Shown here: positions 13,864 through 47,712 of the stretch, piece by piece | Layout of the letters: the number at the start of each line of letters is the position of its first letter | How positions within the stretch are numbered: position 1 is the first letter of the stretch | NCBI GenBank assembly: GCA_963821585.1 | Contig: CAWGEI010000005.1 | Coordinates: 6,603-70,602 of the forward strand | Source: an uncultured Acidobacteriota bacterium | GTDB lineage: Bacteria > Acidobacteriota > Thermoanaerobaculia > Gp7-AA8 | Length of the DNA stretch: 64,000 bases | Reading direction: 5' to 3' | The notes under the pieces: model-generated | Database searches by the model: none | Told to the model about the DNA's origin: nothing | Seen by the model: the letters and a program-made list of their open reading frames with translations, nothing else | Program-made: the position numbers and the translations under genes

Positions 13864-13929
13864 ATTCACCACAGAGAGCACAGAGATCACGGAGAGCTCT
13901 CTGTGGTCTCTGTGCCCTCTGTGGTGAAT
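13864..13929. repeat. 66-bp near-perfect palindrome between sufB and sufC (arms built from 9-nt CACAGAGNN sub-repeats)
   Basis: ATTCACCACAGAGAGCACAGAGATCACGGAGAG | CTCTCTGTGGTCTCTGTGCCCTCTGTGGTGAAT. The 33-nt arms have 3 mismatches and no spacer. Confidence 0.9.
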
Positions 13930-16140: not shown

Positions 16141-16671
16141 ATGAAAAACAGACTGATGTTCCCGTTGGTATTTGTCGCGGCGTGGGGGGTGGCGTGCAGT
16201 GGCGACGGAGCCCGGCGCGGCGCACAGCAGAACAACTACGAAACCGTTCAGGAAGGCTCGGCCGCGGGCGTGACGTCGACGATTCACGGGCCGGGCGAGG
16301 TGCTTCCGCCGGTCACGGGGACGAACGCGGATACGACCTCAGCCTTCACGATCGACCCGAACACGGCCGCCACGACAGTAGCGGTCGCACCACCCATGCC
16401 GGAGCCAATGCCGGTCACGGCGACAACGCCGGCTCGTTATCCGATTCCTCAGACTTCCGCCGTGCCGGTCCGGCAACCGCCTCCGGAGCGCGCACCCGAA
16501 CCCGCGCCTGCACCGCCTACGGAGACCGCGCCGCCTACCGAGACGGCGCCTCCCACGGAGACCGCACCCCCGACAAAGACGGACACGGTCGCGCAGCCAG
16601 GCGAGCAGGAGCAGGCAGAGCCGCAAGCGGAAGAGCCGCCTCCGACGACGACGGACACAAGGGGACAATAG
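16141..16671 (+). CDS. Secreted (possibly lipidated) Pro/Thr/Ala-rich protein
   Basis: 176 aa. Signal peptide MKNRLMFPLVFVAAWGVAC, then a low-complexity tail with APPTET repeats. The stop TAG falls in the first unit of the downstream hairpin. Confidence 0.7.
   Translation: MKNRLMFPLVFVAAWGVACSGDGARRGAQQNNYETVQEGSAAGVTSTIHGPGEVLPPVTGTNADTTSAFTIDPNTAATTVAVAPPMPEPMPVTATTPARYPIPQTSAVPVRQPPPERAPEPAPAPPTETAPPTETAPPTETAPPTKTDTVAQPGEQEQAEPQAEEPPPTTTDTRGQ
16510..16581 (+). repeat. In-frame 18-bp tandem repeat x4 (APPTET/APPTKT)
   Basis: gcaccgcctacggagacc / gcgccgcctaccgagacg / gcgcctcccacggagacc / gcacccccgacaaagacg. Confidence 0.85.
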
Positions 16672-16768
16672 GACGGATAGGACGAATAGGACCTATAGGA
16701 CAAGCAAGAGTCCACCCACCCGTTTCTCCCTATCCGTCCTATAGGTCCTATCCGTCCTATCGTCCTAT
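16668..16768. repeat. Hairpin with arms built from 9-nt ATAGGACNN sub-repeats
   Basis: ATAGGACGGATAGGACGAATAGGACCTATAGGAC ... CTATCCGTCCTATAGGTCCTATCCGTCCTATCGTCCTAT. Confidence 0.88.
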
Positions 16769-16780
16769 ACTGCGCGCCCT

Positions 16781-29701: not shown

Positions 29702-29890
29702 CTGTCGCCCGCTACGCGGGCTCGTTCCCAGCGACCGCGCTATTCCCCCGGCTGAAGCCGGGGTCTATTTTCTGTAGCCCGCTACGCGGGCAGAATTTGC
29801 CGCCGTAGGCGGCGACAGAAAATAGCCTCCGGCTTCAGCCGGAGGACTGCGACGGGTTGGGGTTGCGAGCCCGCGTATGCGGGCGGCAGA
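29702..29890. repeat. Family-2 nested composite palindrome, copy C
   Basis: CTGTCGCCCGCTACGCGGGCTCGTTCC ... CCCCCGGCTGAAGCCGGGGTCTATTTTCT ... GCCCGCTACGCGGGC / GCCGCCGTAGGCGGC ... AATAGCCTCCGGCTTCAGCCGGAGG ... CGAGCCCGCGTATGCGGGCGGCAGAG. Confidence 0.9.
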
Positions 29891-37043: not shown

Positions 37044-39709
37044 TACTCTTTCGCGTCGTACCAGCTCTTCCCCCAGTGCACATCCACGGCGAGAGGGACA
37101 GCCAGCGGGAAAATACCCTCCATGGTCTCTTTCACGATCCCCGCCACGTCGGCCGCGCTCGGCTCCGGCGCCTCGATCACGATCTCGTCATGGACGGTCA
37201 GCAGCATCCGCGCGCCCGCACCGTGCGCGGTGAGGCGATCCTCCAGGGCGATCATGGCCATCTTCAGGATGTCCGCCGCCGTGCCCTGGATCGGCGCGTT
37301 CGTCGCCATCCGCTCGGCGTTGCCGCGTACGGTGAACGAGCGGTTGTGGATCTCCGGGATGTACCGCACGCGGCCGAACAGCGTCGTCACCTTCCCCGTG
37401 CTCCGCGCGTCGGCCAGCGTCCGGTCCAGATACTCCTGGATCTTCGGATAGCGCGAGAAGTACGCCTCGATCCACTCCTTCGCCTGCTGCCCCGAGATCC
37501 CGAGCTCGTTCGCCAGCCGGAAGGCCGACATGCCGTACAGCACGCCGAAGTTGATCGTCTTCGCCGCGCGGCGCTGCTCCACCGTCAGCTCGTCCTCAGG
37601 GATGTTGAACATCTTCGACGCCGTCGCGCGGTGGATGTCGGCGCCGCGGCGGAAGGTCTCGATCAGCGACTCGTCCTGCGAGATGTGCGCGAGGATGCGC
37701 AGCTCGACCTGCGAGTAATCCGCGGAGAGCAGCACCGAGCCCTCGTCCGCGATGAACGCCTTGCGGATCTCCCGGCCGGTCTGCGTACGGATGGGGATGT
37801 TCTGCAGGTTCGGGTCGGACGACGACAGCCGTCCCGTCGCCGCGACGGCCTGGTTGAACGTCGTGTGGACGCGCCCGTCTTTCCCGACGAGCAGCGGCAG
37901 CGCGTCGATGTACGTCCCCTTGAGCTTGTGCAGCTCGCGGTGCTGGAGGATGAGCTGCGGCACGGCGAAGCCGTGGCTGGCCAGCTCTTCGAGCACTTCC
38001 ACGCTCGTCGAGAAGCTCTTCGTGGTCTTGGTCTTCTTGATGACCGGGTAGTTCAGCTTCTCGAAGAGGATGTGGCCGAGCTGGAGCGGGGAGTTGATGT
38101 TGAACTCCGTCCCCGCCTCCTCGTACACGCGGCGCTCGAGGTCCGCGATCTGCTCGCCGAACGTCTTCGACATCGCGCGCAGCAGGCCGGTGTCGATGCG
38201 GATGCCGCGGTCTTCCATCTTGCCGAGGACGGGGAAGAGCGGCATCTCGATCTGCTCGTAGATGCGCGGCAGGGCCTCGTCGCGGCGCAGCTCCGGCCCG
38301 AGCACGTCCTTCAGCGCCACCGTCACCTCGGACTTCTCGCCGAGGTACTGCAGGAGCGGGGTGAGTCTCGAGGAGCCGATCTCGTGGTCGATCTCGAACA
38401 GCGGGGCCGTCTTCTCGACCACCTTGCGCGCGGAAATGTCCTGCTTGAGACGATCGCGGGCGATGTTCCCCAGCGCGTGGCTGGGCAGGCCGGGATTGAT
38501 GACGTACGACATCAGCATCACGTCTTCCCAGCGCGTGGGAACGGGCCAGCCGAGGGCGTGGAGACGGCGGGTCTGCGCCTTCGCGTCGTACGTGACGATG
38601 ACGCGGTCGCTGGCGAGGAGGTCGCGCAGCGCGTCGTGCATCTCGCTCGTGCCGCCGTACTCCTTCGCGATCGGAACGAGCAGCGACTCCGAGGGCTTCA
38701 TGGAGAGCGAGGCGGCGATCGGGGCGTCGAAGCCGTCCGGCGTCTCCGGCTCGAGCCACAACGCGATCGGCTCGCCGGGCCCGGCGAATGTGCGGACGTC
38801 CTCCGCGCTCCCCGCAATCCGCACCTCCTTCTCCACCGGCGGCGCCTCGGGCAGAAACTCCTGCATCAGGGAGGCGAACTCCAGGCGGGAGAAGATGTCG
38901 TGCAGCTTCGGGCGGTCGGGATCGGTGCGCTTGAGCGTCTCGAAGTCGATGGCGAGATCGAGGTCGCACTTGATGCGCGCCAGTTCCTTGGAGAGGTAGG
39001 CCTTGTCCTTGTTGTCCTCCAGCGCTTTGCGCTGCGTCGCCTTCTTGATCTGATCGAGGCTCCCGTACACGCCGTCGAGCGAGCCGAACTGCTGGATCAG
39101 GCCCTTCGCGCCCTTCTCGCCGATGCCGGGGACGCCCGGGATGTTGTCGATGGCGTCGCCCCAGATGGCCATGACGTCGACGACCTTCTCCGGCGGCAGG
39201 CCGAACGCCTCTTCGACGCCCTTGGCGTCGTACATGGTCTCGCGGCCGGTGTGGTAGAGGCGGATGCCGTCGCCGACGAGCTGGAAGAAGTCCTTGTCGC
39301 TGGTGGCGATGACGACGTCATAGCCGCGGTCGCGCGCCGAGCACGCCAGCGAGCCGATGAAGTCGTCCGCCTCCCACTCCGTCGAGCGGATCACCGGGAT
39401 GCGGAAGCCGTCCAGGACTTCATAGACCAGCGGCACCTGCACGACGAGGTCGTCGGGCATCGGCTTGCGGTCTTTCTTGTAGTCGGCGAACTGGCTCGTG
39501 CGCGCCGTCTCCCGGCCATCGTCGAAGGCCACAGCGATGCAATCGGGGTTGTGGTCCTTGAGCAGCTTCTTCAGCGTCGTGACGAAGCCGTAGACGGCGT
39601 TCGTCGAAAACCCGTCCGAGTTCGTCAGATGACGGATCGCGTAGTAGGAGCGGTAGACGTTGTTGGAGCCGTCAATGATGAAGAGGGAGGGGCGCTTCGA
39701 CTTGGGCAC
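37043..39709 (-). CDS. polA: DNA polymerase I
   Basis: 888 aa. 5'-nuclease N-terminus (LFIIDGSNNVYRSYYA) and polymerase motifs (DYSQVELRILAH, QGTAADI, VHDE). Confidence 0.97.
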   Translation of the reverse strand: MPKSKRPSLFIIDGSNNVYRSYYAIRHLTNSDGFSTNAVYGFVTTLKKLLKDHNPDCIAVAFDDGRETARTSQFADYKKDRKPMPDDLVVQVPLVYEVLDGFRIPVIRSTEWEADDFIGSLACSARDRGYDVVIATSDKDFFQLVGDGIRLYHTGRETMYDAKGVEEAFGLPPEKVVDVMAIWGDAIDNIPGVPGIGEKGAKGLIQQFGSLDGVYGSLDQIKKATQRKALEDNKDKAYLSKELARIKCDLDLAIDFETLKRTDPDRPKLHDIFSRLEFASLMQEFLPEAPPVEKEVRIAGSAEDVRTFAGPGEPIALWLEPETPDGFDAPIAASLSMKPSESLLVPIAKEYGGTSEMHDALRDLLASDRVIVTYDAKAQTRRLHALGWPVPTRWEDVMLMSYVINPGLPSHALGNIARDRLKQDISARKVVEKTAPLFEIDHEIGSSRLTPLLQYLGEKSEVTVALKDVLGPELRRDEALPRIYEQIEMPLFPVLGKMEDRGIRIDTGLLRAMSKTFGEQIADLERRVYEEAGTEFNINSPLQLGHILFEKLNYPVIKKTKTTKSFSTSVEVLEELASHGFAVPQLILQHRELHKLKGTYIDALPLLVGKDGRVHTTFNQAVAATGRLSSSDPNLQNIPIRTQTGREIRKAFIADEGSVLLSADYSQVELRILAHISQDESLIETFRRGADIHRATASKMFNIPEDELTVEQRRAAKTINFGVLYGMSAFRLANELGISGQQAKEWIEAYFSRYPKIQEYLDRTLADARSTGKVTTLFGRVRYIPEIHNRSFTVRGNAERMATNAPIQGTAADILKMAMIALEDRLTAHGAGARMLLTVHDEIVIEAPEPSAADVAGIVKETMEGIFPLAVPLAVDVHWGKSWYDAKE

Positions 39710-39726
39710 GGGGGCGGATTATAGGA

Positions 39727-39807
39727 GTGCTGAGTGCTGGGTGCTGAGTGCTGGGTGCTGAGTGCTGGGTCACGCCTGCCGTTCTCTCAGCACCCAGCAC
39801 TCAGCAC
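39727..39807. repeat. Hairpin/tandem repeat built from a 7-nt (14-nt) GTGCTGA/GTGCTGG unit
   Basis: (GTGCTGAGTGCTGG)x3 GT ... CTCAGCACCCAGCACTCAGCAC, followed by TTTT. Confidence 0.88.
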
Positions 39808-39809
39808 TT

Positions 39810-40300
39810 TTCCTCTGAAAGCACTAACGGACCCTTTCGGGTCCGTTGTGGTACATCGGGCTGGACTGCTGCGGCCAGTTGGTGGGGTTCAAGGAAGCTA
39901 AGTGAGTAATCGTCCAAAATCGGTCCAATAGTCAAGGAGGGAGCCCGCAGCAGCCACTTGGCGCAGGCAAGTCAGGTGTGACCCGCGCAAGCGTGGTTTC
40001 GAGGTCCATTTCGAAACCTGATTCATCGTGCTCTCTCCTACTGCATTCGGTAGGCCAACTTCACCGGAAGCGTCCCAATCAGCACAGAAACAGAATGTTT
40101 CAGCGGGCGCAAGCGCAGAAGTTCCAGTAATCAAGAGAGATACGCCCTCCGCTTGTGAAAAAAAGCGCATGCGGGATGACGACAGGATCGGTGGAAAGTT
40201 TTTCCACCCCTCGAAGGGCCGTTGCAATTCTGACCACCCGGCAGGAGGTAAATATTGACCACCCCGCTTCCCCCGGCGCGCGATGCACCAGGGTTGAGCC
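39810..40300. other. About 490-bp low-GC non-coding island with several stable local hairpins; candidate structured RNA locus of unknown class
   Basis: Hand counts give about 48-53% G+C in 60-nt blocks, against much higher flanks. There is no convincing ORF. Hairpins: AACGGACCC-TTTC-GGGTCCGTT (39826-39847), GGTTTCGA-ggtccatt-TCGAAACC (39996-40019) and GGTGGAAA-gtt-TTTCCACC (40190-40208). Confidence 0.4.
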
Positions 40301-40303
40301 GCG

Positions 40304-40522
40304 TCAGCGCGCGGCGGAACCCAGCAACGAGTTCAGATCCCGCAGGAACGACTCCAGCTCGATGCGATACCCCTCCGCGACCTCCGCGAGCGTCTCATCG
40401 TTGGCGCGGCTGCAGCCGTTGCAGCCGCCGAGGTGATACGCCGCGAAGACCCAGCGCGCTTTCGGGTGCTTCTCCAGCGCCTCGGAAACGATGGTCGTGG
40501 GCGTAAACATGCGGCCGAACAT
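40304..40522 (-). CDS. DUF1858 / hybrid-cluster-associated redox disulfide domain protein
   Basis: 72 aa: TIVSEALEKHPKARWVFAAYHLGGCNGCSRANDETLAEVAEGY. Confidence 0.75.
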   Translation of the reverse strand: MFGRMFTPTTIVSEALEKHPKARWVFAAYHLGGCNGCSRANDETLAEVAEGYRIELESFLRDLNSLLGSAAR

Positions 40523-40530
40523 TCTAGATC

Positions 40531-40618
40531 AGAGCGCGGAGCGCAGAGGGCAGAGCGCAGAAGGCCACCGCCCCACCACCGAGTTCTTCTGCCCTCTGCG
40601 CTCTGCCCTCTGCGCTCT
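40531..40618. repeat. Hairpin with arms built from 7-nt AGAGCGC/AGAGGGC sub-repeats; fills the divergent intergenic region
   Basis: AGAGCGCGGAGCGCAGAGGGCAGAGCGCAGAAGG ... TTCTTCTGCCCTCTGCGCTCTGCCCTCTGCGCTCT. Confidence 0.88.
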
Positions 40619-40621
40619 ACA

Positions 40622-40876
40622 ATGCGGACCGTGACCGTGCGCCTCCTCTTCTTTGCCGTCCTCCGCGACATCGCGGGGACCGATTCCCGCGAGCTCGCGC
40701 TGGCGGACGGGACGACGGCGCGCGACGTGTGGCAATCGCTACGCGGGGAGTTCGCGAAGCTGGCCGACTACACCCAGCCGCCGATGATCGCCGTCAACGA
40801 GAGCTACGCCGATCCCGAGACCATCCTTCGCGACGGCGACGAGCTCGCGTTCATCCCCCCCGTGGCCGGCGGTTGA
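40622..40876 (+). CDS. moaD: Molybdopterin synthase sulfur carrier subunit (MoaD/ThiS fold, C-terminal GG)
   Basis: 84 aa: MRTVTVRLLFFAVLRDIAG...DGDELAFIPPVAGG*. Confidence 0.85.
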   Translation: MRTVTVRLLFFAVLRDIAGTDSRELALADGTTARDVWQSLRGEFAKLADYTQPPMIAVNESYADPETILRDGDELAFIPPVAGG

Positions 40877-40878
40877 CG

Positions 40879-41295
40879 ATGCCCTACCTCACCGACGACC
40901 CGATCGATCCCCGCGCGCTCGTCGAGCGCGTCATGCGCCGTTCCGACGGCGCGTACGTCCTCTTCGAAGGCGTCGTGCGCAACCACCACGAAGGCCGGGC
41001 CGTCGAGTCGATCTTCTACGACGCCTACCGTCCCATGGCCGAGAAGGAGATCGATACGATCGTGCGCGAGATCGCCGCTCGCTACCCCGACGTCGCCCTC
41101 GCCATCCTCCACCGCCTCGGCCACCTCATCGTCGGCGACTCCTCGATCGCGATCGTCGCGTCGTCGCCGCACCGCGCCGAGGCGTTCGAGGCCTGCCGGA
41201 TGATGATCGACCGCATCAAAGAGACCGTCCCCATCTGGAAGAAAGAGCGCGGCCCGAATGGCGAGGAGTGGGTCGGATGGCAGGGCCGATGCTGA
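40879..41295 (+). CDS. moaE: Molybdopterin synthase catalytic subunit
   Basis: 138 aa: GAYVLFEGVVRNHHEGRAV...IVASSPHRAEAFEACRMMIDRIKETVPIWKKE. Confidence 0.9.
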   Translation: MPYLTDDPIDPRALVERVMRRSDGAYVLFEGVVRNHHEGRAVESIFYDAYRPMAEKEIDTIVREIAARYPDVALAILHRLGHLIVGDSSIAIVASSPHRAEAFEACRMMIDRIKETVPIWKKERGPNGEEWVGWQGRC

Positions 41296-43249: not shown

Positions 43250-44173
43250 ATGAAACACAAAGACTTCATCGAAGTAACCGACTACACCGCGGACGAGGTC
43301 CTGGAGCTCTTCCGCCTCGCCGCGGACATGAAGAAAGACAAGGACCAGTACCGCACCGCGCTGGCGGGGCAGACGCTGGCGATGATCTTCGAGAAATCGT
43401 CGACGCGCACGCGGGTCTCGTTCGAGGTGGGGATGTACCAGCTCGGCGGCCACGCGCTGTTCCTCTCCTCGCGCGACATCCAGCTCGGCCGCGGCGAGCC
43501 GATCACCGACACCGCGCGCGTGCTCTCGCGCTACGTCGACGGCATCATGGCCCGCACTTTCGCGCACAAGACCGTCACCGACCTCGCCGAGTACGCGACC
43601 GTACCCGTGATCAACGGACTCACGGACCTCTCGCACCCCTGCCAGTCGATGACCGACTACTTCACCGCGTGGGAGAGGTTCGGCGGCAATCTCAAGGGCC
43701 GCAAGATGGCGTACGTCGGCGACGGCAACAACATGGCCCACTCGCTCCTCGTCGCCGCGCCGAAGGTGGGCATGGACATCGCTGTAGCCACTCCCGCGGA
43801 CTACGCCCCGAACGCCGAGGTCGTGGCGGAGGCGCAGGCAGCCGCGCGCGAGGCGGGAACGAAAGTGATCCTCACGAACTCGATGGACGAAGCCATCAAA
43901 GACGCCGACATCGTCGAGACCGACGTGTGGGCGTCGATGGGACAGGAAGCCGAGGCCGAGAAGCGCAACCGCGACTTCCACGGCTGGATGGTCGACGCCC
44001 GCCACATGGCCTCGGCGAAGAAGGACGCGATCTTCATGCACTGCCTCCCCGCCCACCGCGGCGAGGAAGTCGCGGCCGAAGTCATCGACAGCCCGGCATC
44101 CGTAATCTACGACGAAGCGGAGAATCGCCTGCACGTGCAGAAGGCGATCATGTATACCTTGATGAAGAAGTAG
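43250..44173 (+). CDS. argF: Ornithine carbamoyltransferase
   Basis: MKHKDFIEVTDYT...FEKSSTRTRVSFE...HPCQ...HCLPAHRGEE. Start is at ATG 43250; the ORF track starts at 43172. Confidence 0.93.
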   Translation: MKHKDFIEVTDYTADEVLELFRLAADMKKDKDQYRTALAGQTLAMIFEKSSTRTRVSFEVGMYQLGGHALFLSSRDIQLGRGEPITDTARVLSRYVDGIMARTFAHKTVTDLAEYATVPVINGLTDLSHPCQSMTDYFTAWERFGGNLKGRKMAYVGDGNNMAHSLLVAAPKVGMDIAVATPADYAPNAEVVAEAQAAAREAGTKVILTNSMDEAIKDADIVETDVWASMGQEAEAEKRNRDFHGWMVDARHMASAKKDAIFMHCLPAHRGEEVAAEVIDSPASVIYDEAENRLHVQKAIMYTLMKK

Positions 44174-44174
44174 G

Positions 44175-44262
44175 CAGTCGACAGTTGGCAGTTGACAGGA
44201 GAGCCCGCACACCCCCGGCGTTCTCCCTCTCCTGCCAACTGCCAACTGCAAACTGTCAACTG
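44175..44262. repeat. Hairpin with arms built from 7-nt CAGTTGG/CAGTTGA sub-repeats
   Basis: CAGTCGACAGTTGGCAGTTGACAGGAGAG ... CTCTCCTGCCAACTGCCAACTGCAAACTGTCAACTG. Confidence 0.88.
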
Positions 44263-45287: not shown

Positions 45288-46226
45288 ATGTCCCGCTTCA
45301 CCTTCCCCCATGCTCCCGGCGATCTCATCGGTGCACACCTCTCGACGCAGGGAGGGCTGCACACGATCTTCGAGCGCGCGTCCGCCATCGGCGCAACCGC
45401 CGCGGCGCTGTTCGCGAAGAACGGAAACCAGTGGCTAGGGAAGACGCTCACGGACGAGCACTGTGCGACGTTCGCGTCGCAGCGCAACGTGGCGCCGCTG
45501 CTCACGCACGCGTCGTATCTGATCAACCTCGCGGGAACAAACGAGGACTTCCACCGCAAGTCGATCGCCGCGCTGATCGACGAGCTCGATCGCGCCGAAC
45601 GCCTCGGCATTCACGCCGTCGTCCTCCACCCCGGTGCGCACCTGGGCGCGGGCTCCGCTGCAGGGGTAGACCGCATCGCCCGCTCGCTGGACCAGGTCCA
45701 TGCGGCAATCCCGCACCATCGCGTCGTCACGCTGCTGGAGACGGGCGCGGGACAGGGCACGTGCGTCGGCTGCACGTTCGAGGAGCTGGGCCGCATGATC
45801 CGGCTCGTCGACGATCCCAAGCGCGTCGGCATCTGCTTCGACACCTGTCACGTGTTCGCCGCCGGCTACGAGATGCGCACGCGCGACGCGTACGAGCGAA
45901 CCATGGACGAGCTGATCCGCCACGTGGGCCTGGACAACGTCGGCGCGTTCCACCTCAACGACTCGAAGAAACTCCTCGGCTCCCGCGTCGACCGCCACAC
46001 CCACATCGGCGAAGGCGAGCTCGGACTGGAGCCGTTCCGCTTCCTGCTCAACGACCCGCGGTTCGCGCGCATCCCGAAGGTGATCGAGACGCCGAAGGAC
46101 GTGGAGACGATTTCGGACCAGCGCAATTTGCGCGTGTTGCGGTCGCTGATCGGGGAGTCTCAAAGTCGGAAAGTCTCAAAGTCTCAAAGAAGAAGACGAA
46201 CGGCTGCTGTCGCAGCATCTCTTTGA
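45288..46226 (+). CDS. nfo: Endonuclease IV (deoxyribonuclease IV)
   Basis: 312 aa: IGAHLS...HASYLINLA...VLHPGAH...LETGAGQG...CFDTCH...HLNDSK. The last about 25 codons ([24 protein letters not shown]) are encoded by the downstream hairpin repeat. Confidence 0.9.
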
Positions 46227-46245
46227 GACTTTGCGACTTTGAGAC
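46155..46245. repeat. Hairpin with arms built from 8-nt GTCTCAAA sub-repeats
   Basis: GAGTCTCAAAGTCGGAAAGTCTCAAAGTCTCAAAGAAG ... CTCTTTGAGACTTTGCGACTTTGAGAC. The loop holds its own mini-hairpin, GCTGC-tgtc-GCAGC. Confidence 0.88.
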
Positions 46246-46291: not shown

Positions 46292-47540
<1,249 letters not shown>

Positions 47541-47542
<2 letters not shown>

Positions 47543-47712
47543 GCTGGAATCAGCAAAATGATGCTGGAGCCAGCTCCACGATGCTGTGGCCAGCTCAAAT
47601 GTGCTGGAAACAGCAGGAAAATGCTGGCGCCAGCAAAATAATGCTGCGGCCAACAAAATAATGCTGCGGCCAGCTCCAGAAATGCCGGACCAGCACGAAA
47701 ATGCTGGAATTA
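47541..47712. repeat. Tandem array of about 9 x 20-bp units, each with a GCTGGNNCCAGC dyad
   Basis: Units start at 47541, 47561, 47581, 47601, 47621, 47641, 47661, 47682 and 47701. The consensus is about ATGCTGGNGCCAGCNAAAAT. Confidence 0.88.

Follow-up and report, generated by a model that had tools for sequence, protein, structure and literature searches.

A conserved structured RNA with a small open reading frame in a soil lineage of Thermoanaerobaculia

In a 64,000-nucleotide stretch of DNA from an uncultured Acidobacteriota bacterium (contig CAWGEI010000005.1; hereafter, the window), the intergenic gap ahead of polA holds an element that, judged from its sequence and its relatives, is a single-copy minus-strand gene specific to a soil Thermoanaerobaculia lineage. 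The element joins a four-helix RNA fold to an open reading frame (ORF) of 42 codons. With roughly even confidence, we read it as a Thermoanaerobaculia-specific, abundant RNA gene under a dual constraint, that is, either a dual-function small RNA (sRNA) or a structured small-ORF mRNA with a role for the RNA itself. The kind of element is already known, and the family is new to Rfam, Pfam, and the searched literature, in which nothing relevant to the element was found.

The original prediction, made from the letters of one sequence, had described positions 39810 to 40300 as a low-GC, ORF-poor island between polA and a DUF1858 gene, holding a candidate structured RNA of unknown class. The G+C content is 0.52 to 0.58 over 39800-40299 and 0.62 to 0.72 in the flanking genes (200-nt windows), and domain searches agree with the coordinates on the placement of the island (Table 1), both as predicted. 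The stems AACGGACCC/GGGTCCGTT (39826-39847), GGTTTCGA/TCGAAACC (39995-40018), and GGTGGAAA/TTTCCACC (40190-40208) were found where they had been reported, and the GCAA-looped stems likewise exist in the letters of the window. However, folding of the single sequence exceeded shuffled sequences only modestly (z = -2.07 for the plus strand and -2.37 for the minus strand), so that a single sequence by itself decides nothing on structure. The observation is real and beyond chance, and the strong evidence for it is comparative.

Table 1 Features of the polA-DUF1858 intergenic region, in window coordinates
Feature	Position	Strand	Remarks
Intergenic gap	39710-40303		Bounded by two minus-strand genes (polA and the DUF1858 gene)
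Minimal transcript: structured RNA carrying the small ORF	39812..40061	minus	From conservation and one RNA contig, 39818-40061
Shine-Dalgarno-like tract AGGAGAGAG	40031..40039	minus	Purine rich; 4-12 nt ahead of the ATG
42-codon ORF, MNQVSKWTSKPRLRGSHLTCLRQVAAAGSLLDYWTDFGRLLT*	39898..40026	minus	ATG end 40026; stop included
Helix H4, GGUUUCGA / UCGAAACC	39995..40018	minus	Variable loop; within the ORF
Helix H3	39955..39993	minus	12 pairs and a 1-nt bulge; within the ORF
Helix H2	39945-39954 with 39865-39874	minus	ORF codons 25-28 pair with the 3' untranslated region (UTR), closing the invariant loop
Nearly invariant loop, ~70 nt, closed by H2	39875..39944	minus	Covers the final 15 codons of the ORF, the stop, and 23 nt at the start of the 3' UTR
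Helix H1	39818..39850	minus	9 bp, GNRA loop; CAC/GUG extension, then CUUU; core 39826-39847
Conserved upstream noncoding stretch	40062..40192	minus	Islands TTTTTTCACAAG, CTTGATT, TTGCG, and AAGTTGGC
Palindrome GGAAAGTTTTTCC	40193-40205		Kept in the window
GTTGCAATTCTGACC	40221-40235		Kept in the window
Heptad-repeat long hairpin, 83 nt	39726-39808		Between H1 and polA; insertion, absent from most relatives
polA	start 39709	minus	N-terminal 303 residues are 5'-3' exonuclease domains (E 1.7e-53)
DUF1858/prismane-associated redox-disulfide domain protein, 72 aa	40304-40522	minus	

Relatives were collected in two independent searches. For the species set, an exact pattern of 24 specified bases and one N from the core was searched in one genome per species of the Genome Taxonomy Database (GTDB); this gave 45 loci, all in metagenome-assembled genomes of Thermoanaerobaculia/Acidobacteriota and each present in one copy. 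Metagenomes of the Joint Genome Institute (JGI) were searched with the degenerate peptide pattern LL[DN]YWTDF only, any synonymous codon being allowed, and 131 relatives were confirmed, of which 80 loci were kept. Because tblastn to the peptide was used to rank these 80 loci, they are biased to intact ORFs, whereas the 45 GTDB loci are unbiased. Pooling both sets gave 106 distinct full-length copies. The alignment of the 45 species shows a conserved block with its limits at about 39812 and about 40262. Identity to these species is 0.83 to 1.00 over 39816-39965, with 0.93 to 1.00 over 39886-39955, and 0.68 to 0.87 up to 40035, compared with 0.43 to 0.66 in the 5' end of polA and 0.2 to 0.6 in the 3' end of the DUF1858 gene; the conservation of the island thus exceeds that of the adjoining coding sequence. 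The element is single copy, syntenic, and lineage-wide, and the idea that the island might be foreign DNA is therefore unsupported. A phage origin was also rejected, as the invariant 23-mer of the element has no match in viral contigs.

The fold was evaluated on two alignments. Alignment A1 is a sequence-only MAFFT alignment of 45 sequences, and A3 was obtained by realigning 100 sources (96 distinct sequences) to R1, a covariance model built on A1, which finds one copy in the 64-kb window. A3 is biased to the modelled structure by the alignment to R1, but the sequence-only A1 agrees with it. In A1, 94.7% of the cells are paired, compared with 33 to 40% in slid controls, and 14 of 42 pairs change on both sides, compared with 0 to 4; none of 500 shuffles reached the observed paired cells or double changes. 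Likewise, 94.6% of the cells are paired in A3 (36-44% in slid controls) and 22 of 42 pairs change on both sides (1-8 in the controls), with 0 of 500 shuffles reaching the observed values on any measure. This comparative evidence argues that the 3' half of the island (about 40061 to 39812, ~250 nt) is a genuine structured RNA.

Every helix contributes to this signal. In H4, all eight pairs change on both sides somewhere, and 94.1% of the cells are paired among the 96 sequences. Seven pairs of H3 change on both sides in A3, where pair 61-88 occurs as GC in 76, AU in 18, and GU in 1 with no mismatch, and pair 65-84 as GU in 62 and GC in 34. The arms of H2 are a perfect 9-nt inverted repeat, 99.3% paired in A3, and its pair 97-197 alternates among CG (71), UA (15), and UG (4). 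In H1, pair 236-254 is GC in 81 and CG in 11 sequences of A3, and pair 231-259 is AU in 74 and GC in 17, while the variation of its loop is confined to the GNRA forms GAAA, GGAA, GACA, GAGA, and GCAA. Several helix positions that would be A·C on the plus strand are G·U on the minus strand, for example in GCGCGGG/CCUGCGC and CGCUUG/CAAGUG, and G·U pairs recur at 65-84, 95-199, 29-51, and 30-50 (A3 numbering). Because all of these would be A·C mismatches on the plus strand, the pairing pattern identifies the minus strand as the functional one, as for polA.

Other candidate pairings did not hold. The hairpin ACCCGC-GCAA-GCG(T)GGT (39981-39997), which the original prediction had listed among its stems, is 83.5% paired but shows a single double change, and 54 sequences break one of its pairs; its bases belong to the well-supported H3, with which it competes. 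A closing helix GAGAGCAC/GUGCUUUC was rejected, as relatives with UCAC still have GUGC, and so was a hairpin sequestering the Shine-Dalgarno (SD)-like tract in a fixed register (CCUAC/GUAGG in the window), which is 47% paired, compared with 33 to 48% in slid controls. In addition, a weak 3-bp UGG/CCG pairing may cross H2, between A3 columns 175-177 and 215-217 (about 39875-39877 with 39856-39858). Its pair 176-216 is GC in 66, GU in 10, and AU in 7 sequences of A3. The pairing could represent a pseudoknot or an alternative conformer, or it could be a coincidence of phylogeny.

The helix at the 3' end, H1, is followed by a conserved tract of three to four U residues, and the two together are the probable intrinsic terminator and 3' end of the RNA. 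The tail beyond the CAC/GUG extension (CUUU/UUUU) lies below the criterion of the scanner (at least 5 T in 8), and the scan for sigma-70 promoters and terminators returned 0 sites. At least one RNA contig (from run X28) reads through H1 into the downstream sequence.

The most conserved part of the RNA is the loop displayed by H2, with an identity of 0.95 to 1.00 among the 45 species over 39875-39944. The last 19 codons of the ORF (VAAAGSLLDYWTDFGRLLT) and the first 23 nt past the stop are almost invariant. The loop contains two UCCUUGA repeats, two UUGGAC(C)GAUU repeats, and one CCUCCUU tract, with the same sequence as the anti-SD end of 16S rRNA. All 80 metagenome loci have the 26-nt sequence ACTATTGGACCGATTTTGGACGATTA without a change, even though synonymous codons of every kind were allowed in the search, and variation in the peptide-pattern segment is limited to CTT/CTC/CTA, GAC/AAC, CTC/ATC/TTC, ACT/ACC/ACA, and the stop. 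The sole frequent synonymous change in the 45 genomes, GCU to GCC, is compensated by the H2 partner in the 3' UTR. Since synonymous sites are invariant and this one change is compensated across H2, the sequences indicate that selection acts on the RNA sequence itself. Within the loop, no covariation could be read, as too few columns vary and the signals present are clade-correlated.

This constraint at the nucleotide level bears on the possibility, quite unlikely in our judgment, that the element is an ordinary mRNA of a small helical protein, whose helices and terminal hairpin tune stability and translation while the RNA has no function of its own. Such an mRNA would account for the conserved ORF, ATG, and SD-like tract, for the terminator-like hairpin 3' of the ORF, and for the single helix predicted over residues 16-41 of the peptide, with predicted local distance difference test (pLDDT) values of 77 to 81 in the conserved part. 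However, it does not account for the synonymous positions frozen in TAT TGG ACC GAT TTT GGA CGA TTA next to genes that are ~40 to 65% identical, for the equally frozen 3' UTR segment 39875-39897, or for an N-terminal half that evolves free of protein-level constraint.

The RNA is represented in many soil, rhizosphere, and sediment metatranscriptome runs, in which 8 to 16% of the 31-mers sampled from 39810-40300 were found. From eight RNA runs, Logan contigs, which carry no direction, were placed on the window; collectively they span 39811-40061, and one of them covers 39818-40061. Over 39883-39960, the summed word depth rises to about 10,800 for run X30, to 679 for X29, and to 276 for X31. Between 39886 and 39968, several contigs agree with the window in every letter (100% identity), and the dominant variant in X30 is matched by two of the relatives (loci L006/L008). 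The invariant loop is the region of highest RNA depth, and contigs of other species stop matching outside the core. Moreover, contig ends joined to adapters recur at 39882-39886 in three independent runs, which suggests discrete RNA ends or preferred cleavage sites. Adapter-joined ends were also seen at 39841-39851 and at 40003/40021. Together, the junctions come from three or four independent metatranscriptomes, and an abundant fragment of ~120-140 nt, from 40021/40003 to 39884, is an example consistent with these junctions. The 5' end of the RNA lies at 40061 or upstream of it, and probably not beyond about 40195, giving a transcript of probably about 0.25 to 0.4 kb that ends at H1. The original prediction hinged on a transcript, on conservation in relatives, and on covariation, and all three were found: directionless RNA contigs at high depth over 39811-40061, conservation in the 45 species genomes and the 80 kept metagenome loci, and covariation in the helices of both A1 and A3.

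The island had also been called ORF-poor, with frames of non-protein-like composition. This description is misleading, as the 42-codon minus-strand frame that had been listed as its best ORF, found at 40026..39898 behind AGGAGAGAG as reported, is conserved in frame. Its ATG and frame are kept in 41 of the 45 species of the DNA-selected set, with a length of 40 to 45 codons, and an in-frame ATG lies 30 to 33 codons upstream of the TAT codon in 102 of the 106 copies. A tract of the GGAG/GAGG type precedes the ATG in most, not all, relatives. In copies bearing the ATG, indels in the H4 loop, at the H4-H3 junction, and at the 5' edge are 0, -3, or +3; one such copy has a +1/-1 split across adjoining segments, net zero and probably an alignment boundary effect. 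Net indels of +1, +2, -1, or -2 occur only in one clade of four loci (L001, L010, L012, and L025), and in three of its four members ACG replaces the ATG. As read from the alignment, an alternative ATG in frame is available farther downstream in L001 and L010, and in L025 a GTG comes after an in-frame TGA. Stops in the variable N-terminal part number 0 in 102 copies in frame 0, compared with 26 in 102 in frame 2. By this pattern of indels and stops, selection keeps a reading frame open on the RNA, which is indirect evidence that the ORF may be translated. Longer frames, including a 109-codon ORF at 39898-40227 and other long frames in the 5' part, were rejected because they are not conserved and have no Pfam or NCBIfam hit.

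Several observations weigh against the dual-constraint reading. Frame 2 is also open in 76 of the 102 copies; on an RNA strand with so little A, chance alone leaves frames open fairly often. Codons 1-23 show no three-base periodicity (mean entropy 0.55, 0.71, and 0.61 at positions 1, 2, and 3), so the N-terminal amino acid sequence is not under protein-level selection. The ATG lies inside the invariant CACGAUGAA motif and could be conserved for RNA reasons; the four species with a disrupted N-terminal ORF retain the invariant RNA; and the 80 peptide-ranked metagenome loci favor intact ORFs. In addition, the loop is so nearly invariant that its inner fold gives no covariation signal, and the abundance data are directionless, so that we infer the strand and ends of the transcript.

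Part of this evidence would fit a purely noncoding structured sRNA, an explanation we consider unlikely, in which the frame is untranslated and both the ATG and the openness of the frame are by-products of RNA motifs and of the A-poor strand. The variable half without codon periodicity and the four species with a broken N-terminal frame and an intact RNA core would be expected under it, as would an amino acid conservation that tracks the RNA stems, a core invariant at synonymous sites, an abundance at the level usual for stable RNAs, and the fact that gene callers almost never predict the ORF. However, at least five distinct indel classes are all 0, +3, or -3 in ATG-bearing copies, and the loops of noncoding hairpins have no reason to change by triplets. 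Moreover, the frame-breaking indels are restricted to the clade that also lost the ATG, the SD-like tract stands at the right distance in most copies, and frame 0 is free of stops (0/102), compared with 26/102 in frame 2.

The peptide itself resembles nothing in the collections searched. No relatives of it were found in Pfam, NCBIfam, PADLOC, or PDB, and only a few predicted proteins match the small ORF, 12 out of 5.8 billion clusters and 20 out of 1.84 billion representatives. Almost all are upstream-extended calls of that ORF, and one is a spurious hit to an alanine-rich repeat protein. AlphaFold2, run on a 13-row alignment, predicts a disordered N terminus and one helix that takes in the conserved C-terminal 19 residues, at moderate confidence (mean pLDDT 67). 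A tryptic peptide of the ORF is QVAAAGSLLDYWTDFGR.

The RNA likewise matches no known family of Rfam 15, which takes in tmRNA, RNase P RNA, 6S, SRP, riboswitches, and large RNAs of the OLE/GOLLD/ROOL/raiA type. The Infernal/Rfam scan proposed with the original prediction gave no family for the island (39000-41000, E <= 1), the sole hits being spurious ones to microRNA-type models, which fall on the heptad-repeat hairpins flanking the island (39726-39808 and 40531-40618). A divergent homologue (L028) gave only one hit to Rfam, of 12.9 bits (E 3.7). The wording "structured RNA of unknown class" is thus fair for the ~250-nt 3' half, with its helices and no Rfam match, but it misses the reading frame that selection appears to keep open there. 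The proposed extent of 0.5 kb has to be reduced in the same way, as about 250 nt have a conserved fold, whereas 40062-40192 has conserved sequence islands but no detectable consensus fold, and 40193-40262 is probably regulatory DNA.

Upstream of the fold, the 5' region hardly varies in length (54 of 60 copies have 145 +/- 1 nt), and 40062-40192 is the probable promoter and/or 5' UTR. No consensus fold was obtained for this stretch (RNAalifold, -5.7 kcal/mol), and no stacked covarying pairs were found within it or with the 3' domain. The 5' region has no conserved reading frame, the best frame being open in 38 of 106 copies, and no convincing -35/-10 pair for the RNA gene was seen by eye. Further upstream, most relatives have a divergent gene for a secreted protein of ~220 aa with a signal peptide and the sequence MKKKLTIAALLL...NWSxGxGxGxFVFGDF, whose ATG lies 9 to 10 nt from GGTCAGAATTGCA; in L064, for example, it lies ~310 to 430 nt upstream of the RNA core anchor on the opposite strand. 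On the strand of this gene, CTGGC-N7-TTGCA ends ~20 nt upstream of its ATG and forms a canonical -24/-12 box for sigma-54. Of the loci compared, 75 have box and gene together, 33 have neither, and 8 are discordant. The window has no full box on the plus strand at 40221-40235, as it has lost both the gene and the TGGC half. From its sequence, 40193-40262 is probably regulatory DNA, a relic of a divergent sigma-54 promoter, rather than RNA structure, and the half-elements retained there may serve the own promoter of the RNA gene. The apparent helix P1 and the "L1/L2 loop" motifs of this part were rejected as RNA structure, as divergent sigma-54 promoter DNA explains them better.

At the other end, polA is the downstream gene in 85 of 125 loci, with the orientation of the RNA, and in many of them it starts only 13 to 30 nt past H1. 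Because of this short spacing, some read-through into polA is likely there. However, 17 loci whose downstream sequence extends beyond 700 nt have no polA, and the RNA is unchanged in them; an AIR-synthase-family gene takes its place in 12 loci (the L015/L028 clade) and a LigB-family gene in L019. For H1, neither inspection by eye nor the stack search turned up a conserved alternative (antiterminator) partner, and no stacked covarying alternative to H2 was seen either. Since the downstream gene varies, the RNA stays unchanged, and antiterminator pairing was not found, the comparison of loci argues that the element is an autonomous gene and not a dedicated polA leader.

A cis-acting polA leader, in which the upstream ORF and H1 form a translation-coupled attenuator of read-through into polA, is accordingly one of the readings that has to be weighed, and we find it highly unlikely. 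The same-strand position of polA, with a start that in many loci is so close to H1 that no room is left for a separate promoter, would suit it, as would the CAGGGG G-rich tract that follows H1 in many relatives and the X28 contig that reads beyond H1. Against it stand the loci without polA and with other genes instead, the 83-nt repeat hairpin that separates H1 from polA in the window, the search for an antiterminator pairing of H1, which found none, and the abundance of the core, which suggests a stable separate RNA. The trp, SecM, and MifM leaders also have a short ORF with a conserved C-terminal segment and then a hairpin upstream of the next gene; unlike them, the element has a varying downstream gene, no detected alternative pairing, and conservation at the nucleotide rather than the peptide level. 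A leader-peptide attenuator of polA was rejected for the failure of obligate linkage. A perfect TATAAT is present at 39718-39723 on the minus strand, 8 nt upstream of the polA GTG; it is not conserved and no -35 was found, and it could give a nearly leaderless polA transcript in the source genome.

Returning to the dual-constraint RNA gene, two requirements would be superimposed on one sequence. The first would be the fold of H4, H3, H2, and H1, in which H2 displays the frozen ~70-nt loop, and the second would be an ORF of 40 to 45 codons with an ATG and an SD-like tract, variable in its N-terminal half and frozen in its C-terminal 19 residues. The RNA may toggle between a folded state, in which the invariant loop would be offered to a conserved partner, RNA or protein, and a translated state, in which a ribosome starting from the AUG would have to open H4 and H3 together with the 5' arm of H2. 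If it toggles in this way, the RNA would be dual function, both coding and riboregulatory, with a presumed loop partner and a presumed regulatory output.

Dual-function sRNAs known from bacteria include SgrS/SgrT, RNAIII/delta-haemolysin, SR1/SR1P, and AzuCR. Like them, the element is abundant, a few hundred nucleotides long, and conserved in structure, with a terminator-like 3' hairpin, a conserved ORF of ~40 codons, and a part of its sequence conserved beyond the needs of the peptide. Unlike them, it has its ORF inside the helices, and its frozen RNA module overlaps the 3' end of the ORF instead of forming a separate seed; Rfam searches showed no resemblance to any of these, by sequence or by model. 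Of the traits of this kind, structure and abundance are supported, and the ends and strand of a discrete transcript are presumed. The evidence is indirect for translation (kept frame and ATG, indels in triplets) and for an RNA activity independent of the peptide (frozen synonymous sites and 3' UTR segment).

Two other kinds of RNA were compared and rejected. Transfer-messenger RNA (tmRNA, ssrA) is similarly single copy, abundant, structured, and of similar size, with a short frame and a conserved C-terminal peptide. However, the element has no tRNA-like domain or CCA end, its ORF has its own ATG (41 of 45 species) and SD-like tract, its peptide ends in ...GRLLT rather than in a hydrophobic Ala-rich degron, and it is limited to one lineage. 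ARAGORN found no tRNA or tmRNA, permuted forms included, and the Rfam tmRNA models gave no hit even at E <= 1. The type I toxin mRNAs of the hok/mok type are also folded and conserved at the nucleotide level, with ~0.3 to 0.4 kb and a small ORF buried in structure. Unlike these, the peptide of the element is charged, with K/R/D throughout, and is not a hydrophobic membrane helix; the gene is present in one copy per genome at a syntenic site and is not mobile or multicopy; PADLOC gives no match; and no antisense RNA is evident.

Some further features of the window lie outside the element. Long intergenic hairpins whose arms are tandem 7- to 9-nt units occur at 39726-39808, 40530-40618, 13870-13925, 16663-16770, 44169-44262, and 46156-46245, each with its own unit, such as GTGCTGA/GTGCTGG, CAGAGCG/CAGAGGG, or CACAGAGAG/TCTCTGTGG. 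A tandem array at 47531-47674 has periods of 20 and 60 nt, with GCTGGAGCCAGCAAAATAAT-like units and 68 to 75% matches. From the sequence reading, a MoaD/ThiS-like ORF (MRTVTVRLLFFAVLRDIAGTDSRELALADG...) begins at 40623 on the plus strand, directly past the second repeat hairpin (40531-40618). Finally, Acido-Lenti-1 (RF01687) was detected at 29798-29845 on the minus strand with 38.9 bits (gathering score 37), the only Rfam family above its gathering threshold in the whole window and one that pointed to Acidobacteriota.

Thermoanaerobaculia are common, mostly uncultured soil bacteria, and contigs matching the conserved core of the element have summed depths of about 10,000 in a public soil metatranscriptome, yet the element is unannotated. 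The R1 model and the 100-sequence alignment allow it to be annotated in metagenomes, removed from the "unknown" reads of metatranscriptomes, and tested experimentally. Overall, the element offers a clean case from nature of RNA-level and reading-frame selection acting on the same sequence, with the frame constraint disappearing in precisely the clade whose start codon was lost. As a tentative and rather unlikely extension, the RNA may be a lineage-specific "housekeeping" riboregulator or ribonucleoprotein scaffold, whose loop binds the ribosome, an RNA-binding protein, or mRNAs and whose ORF translation acts as the switch. If so, it would be a translation-gated RNA module without a described counterpart.

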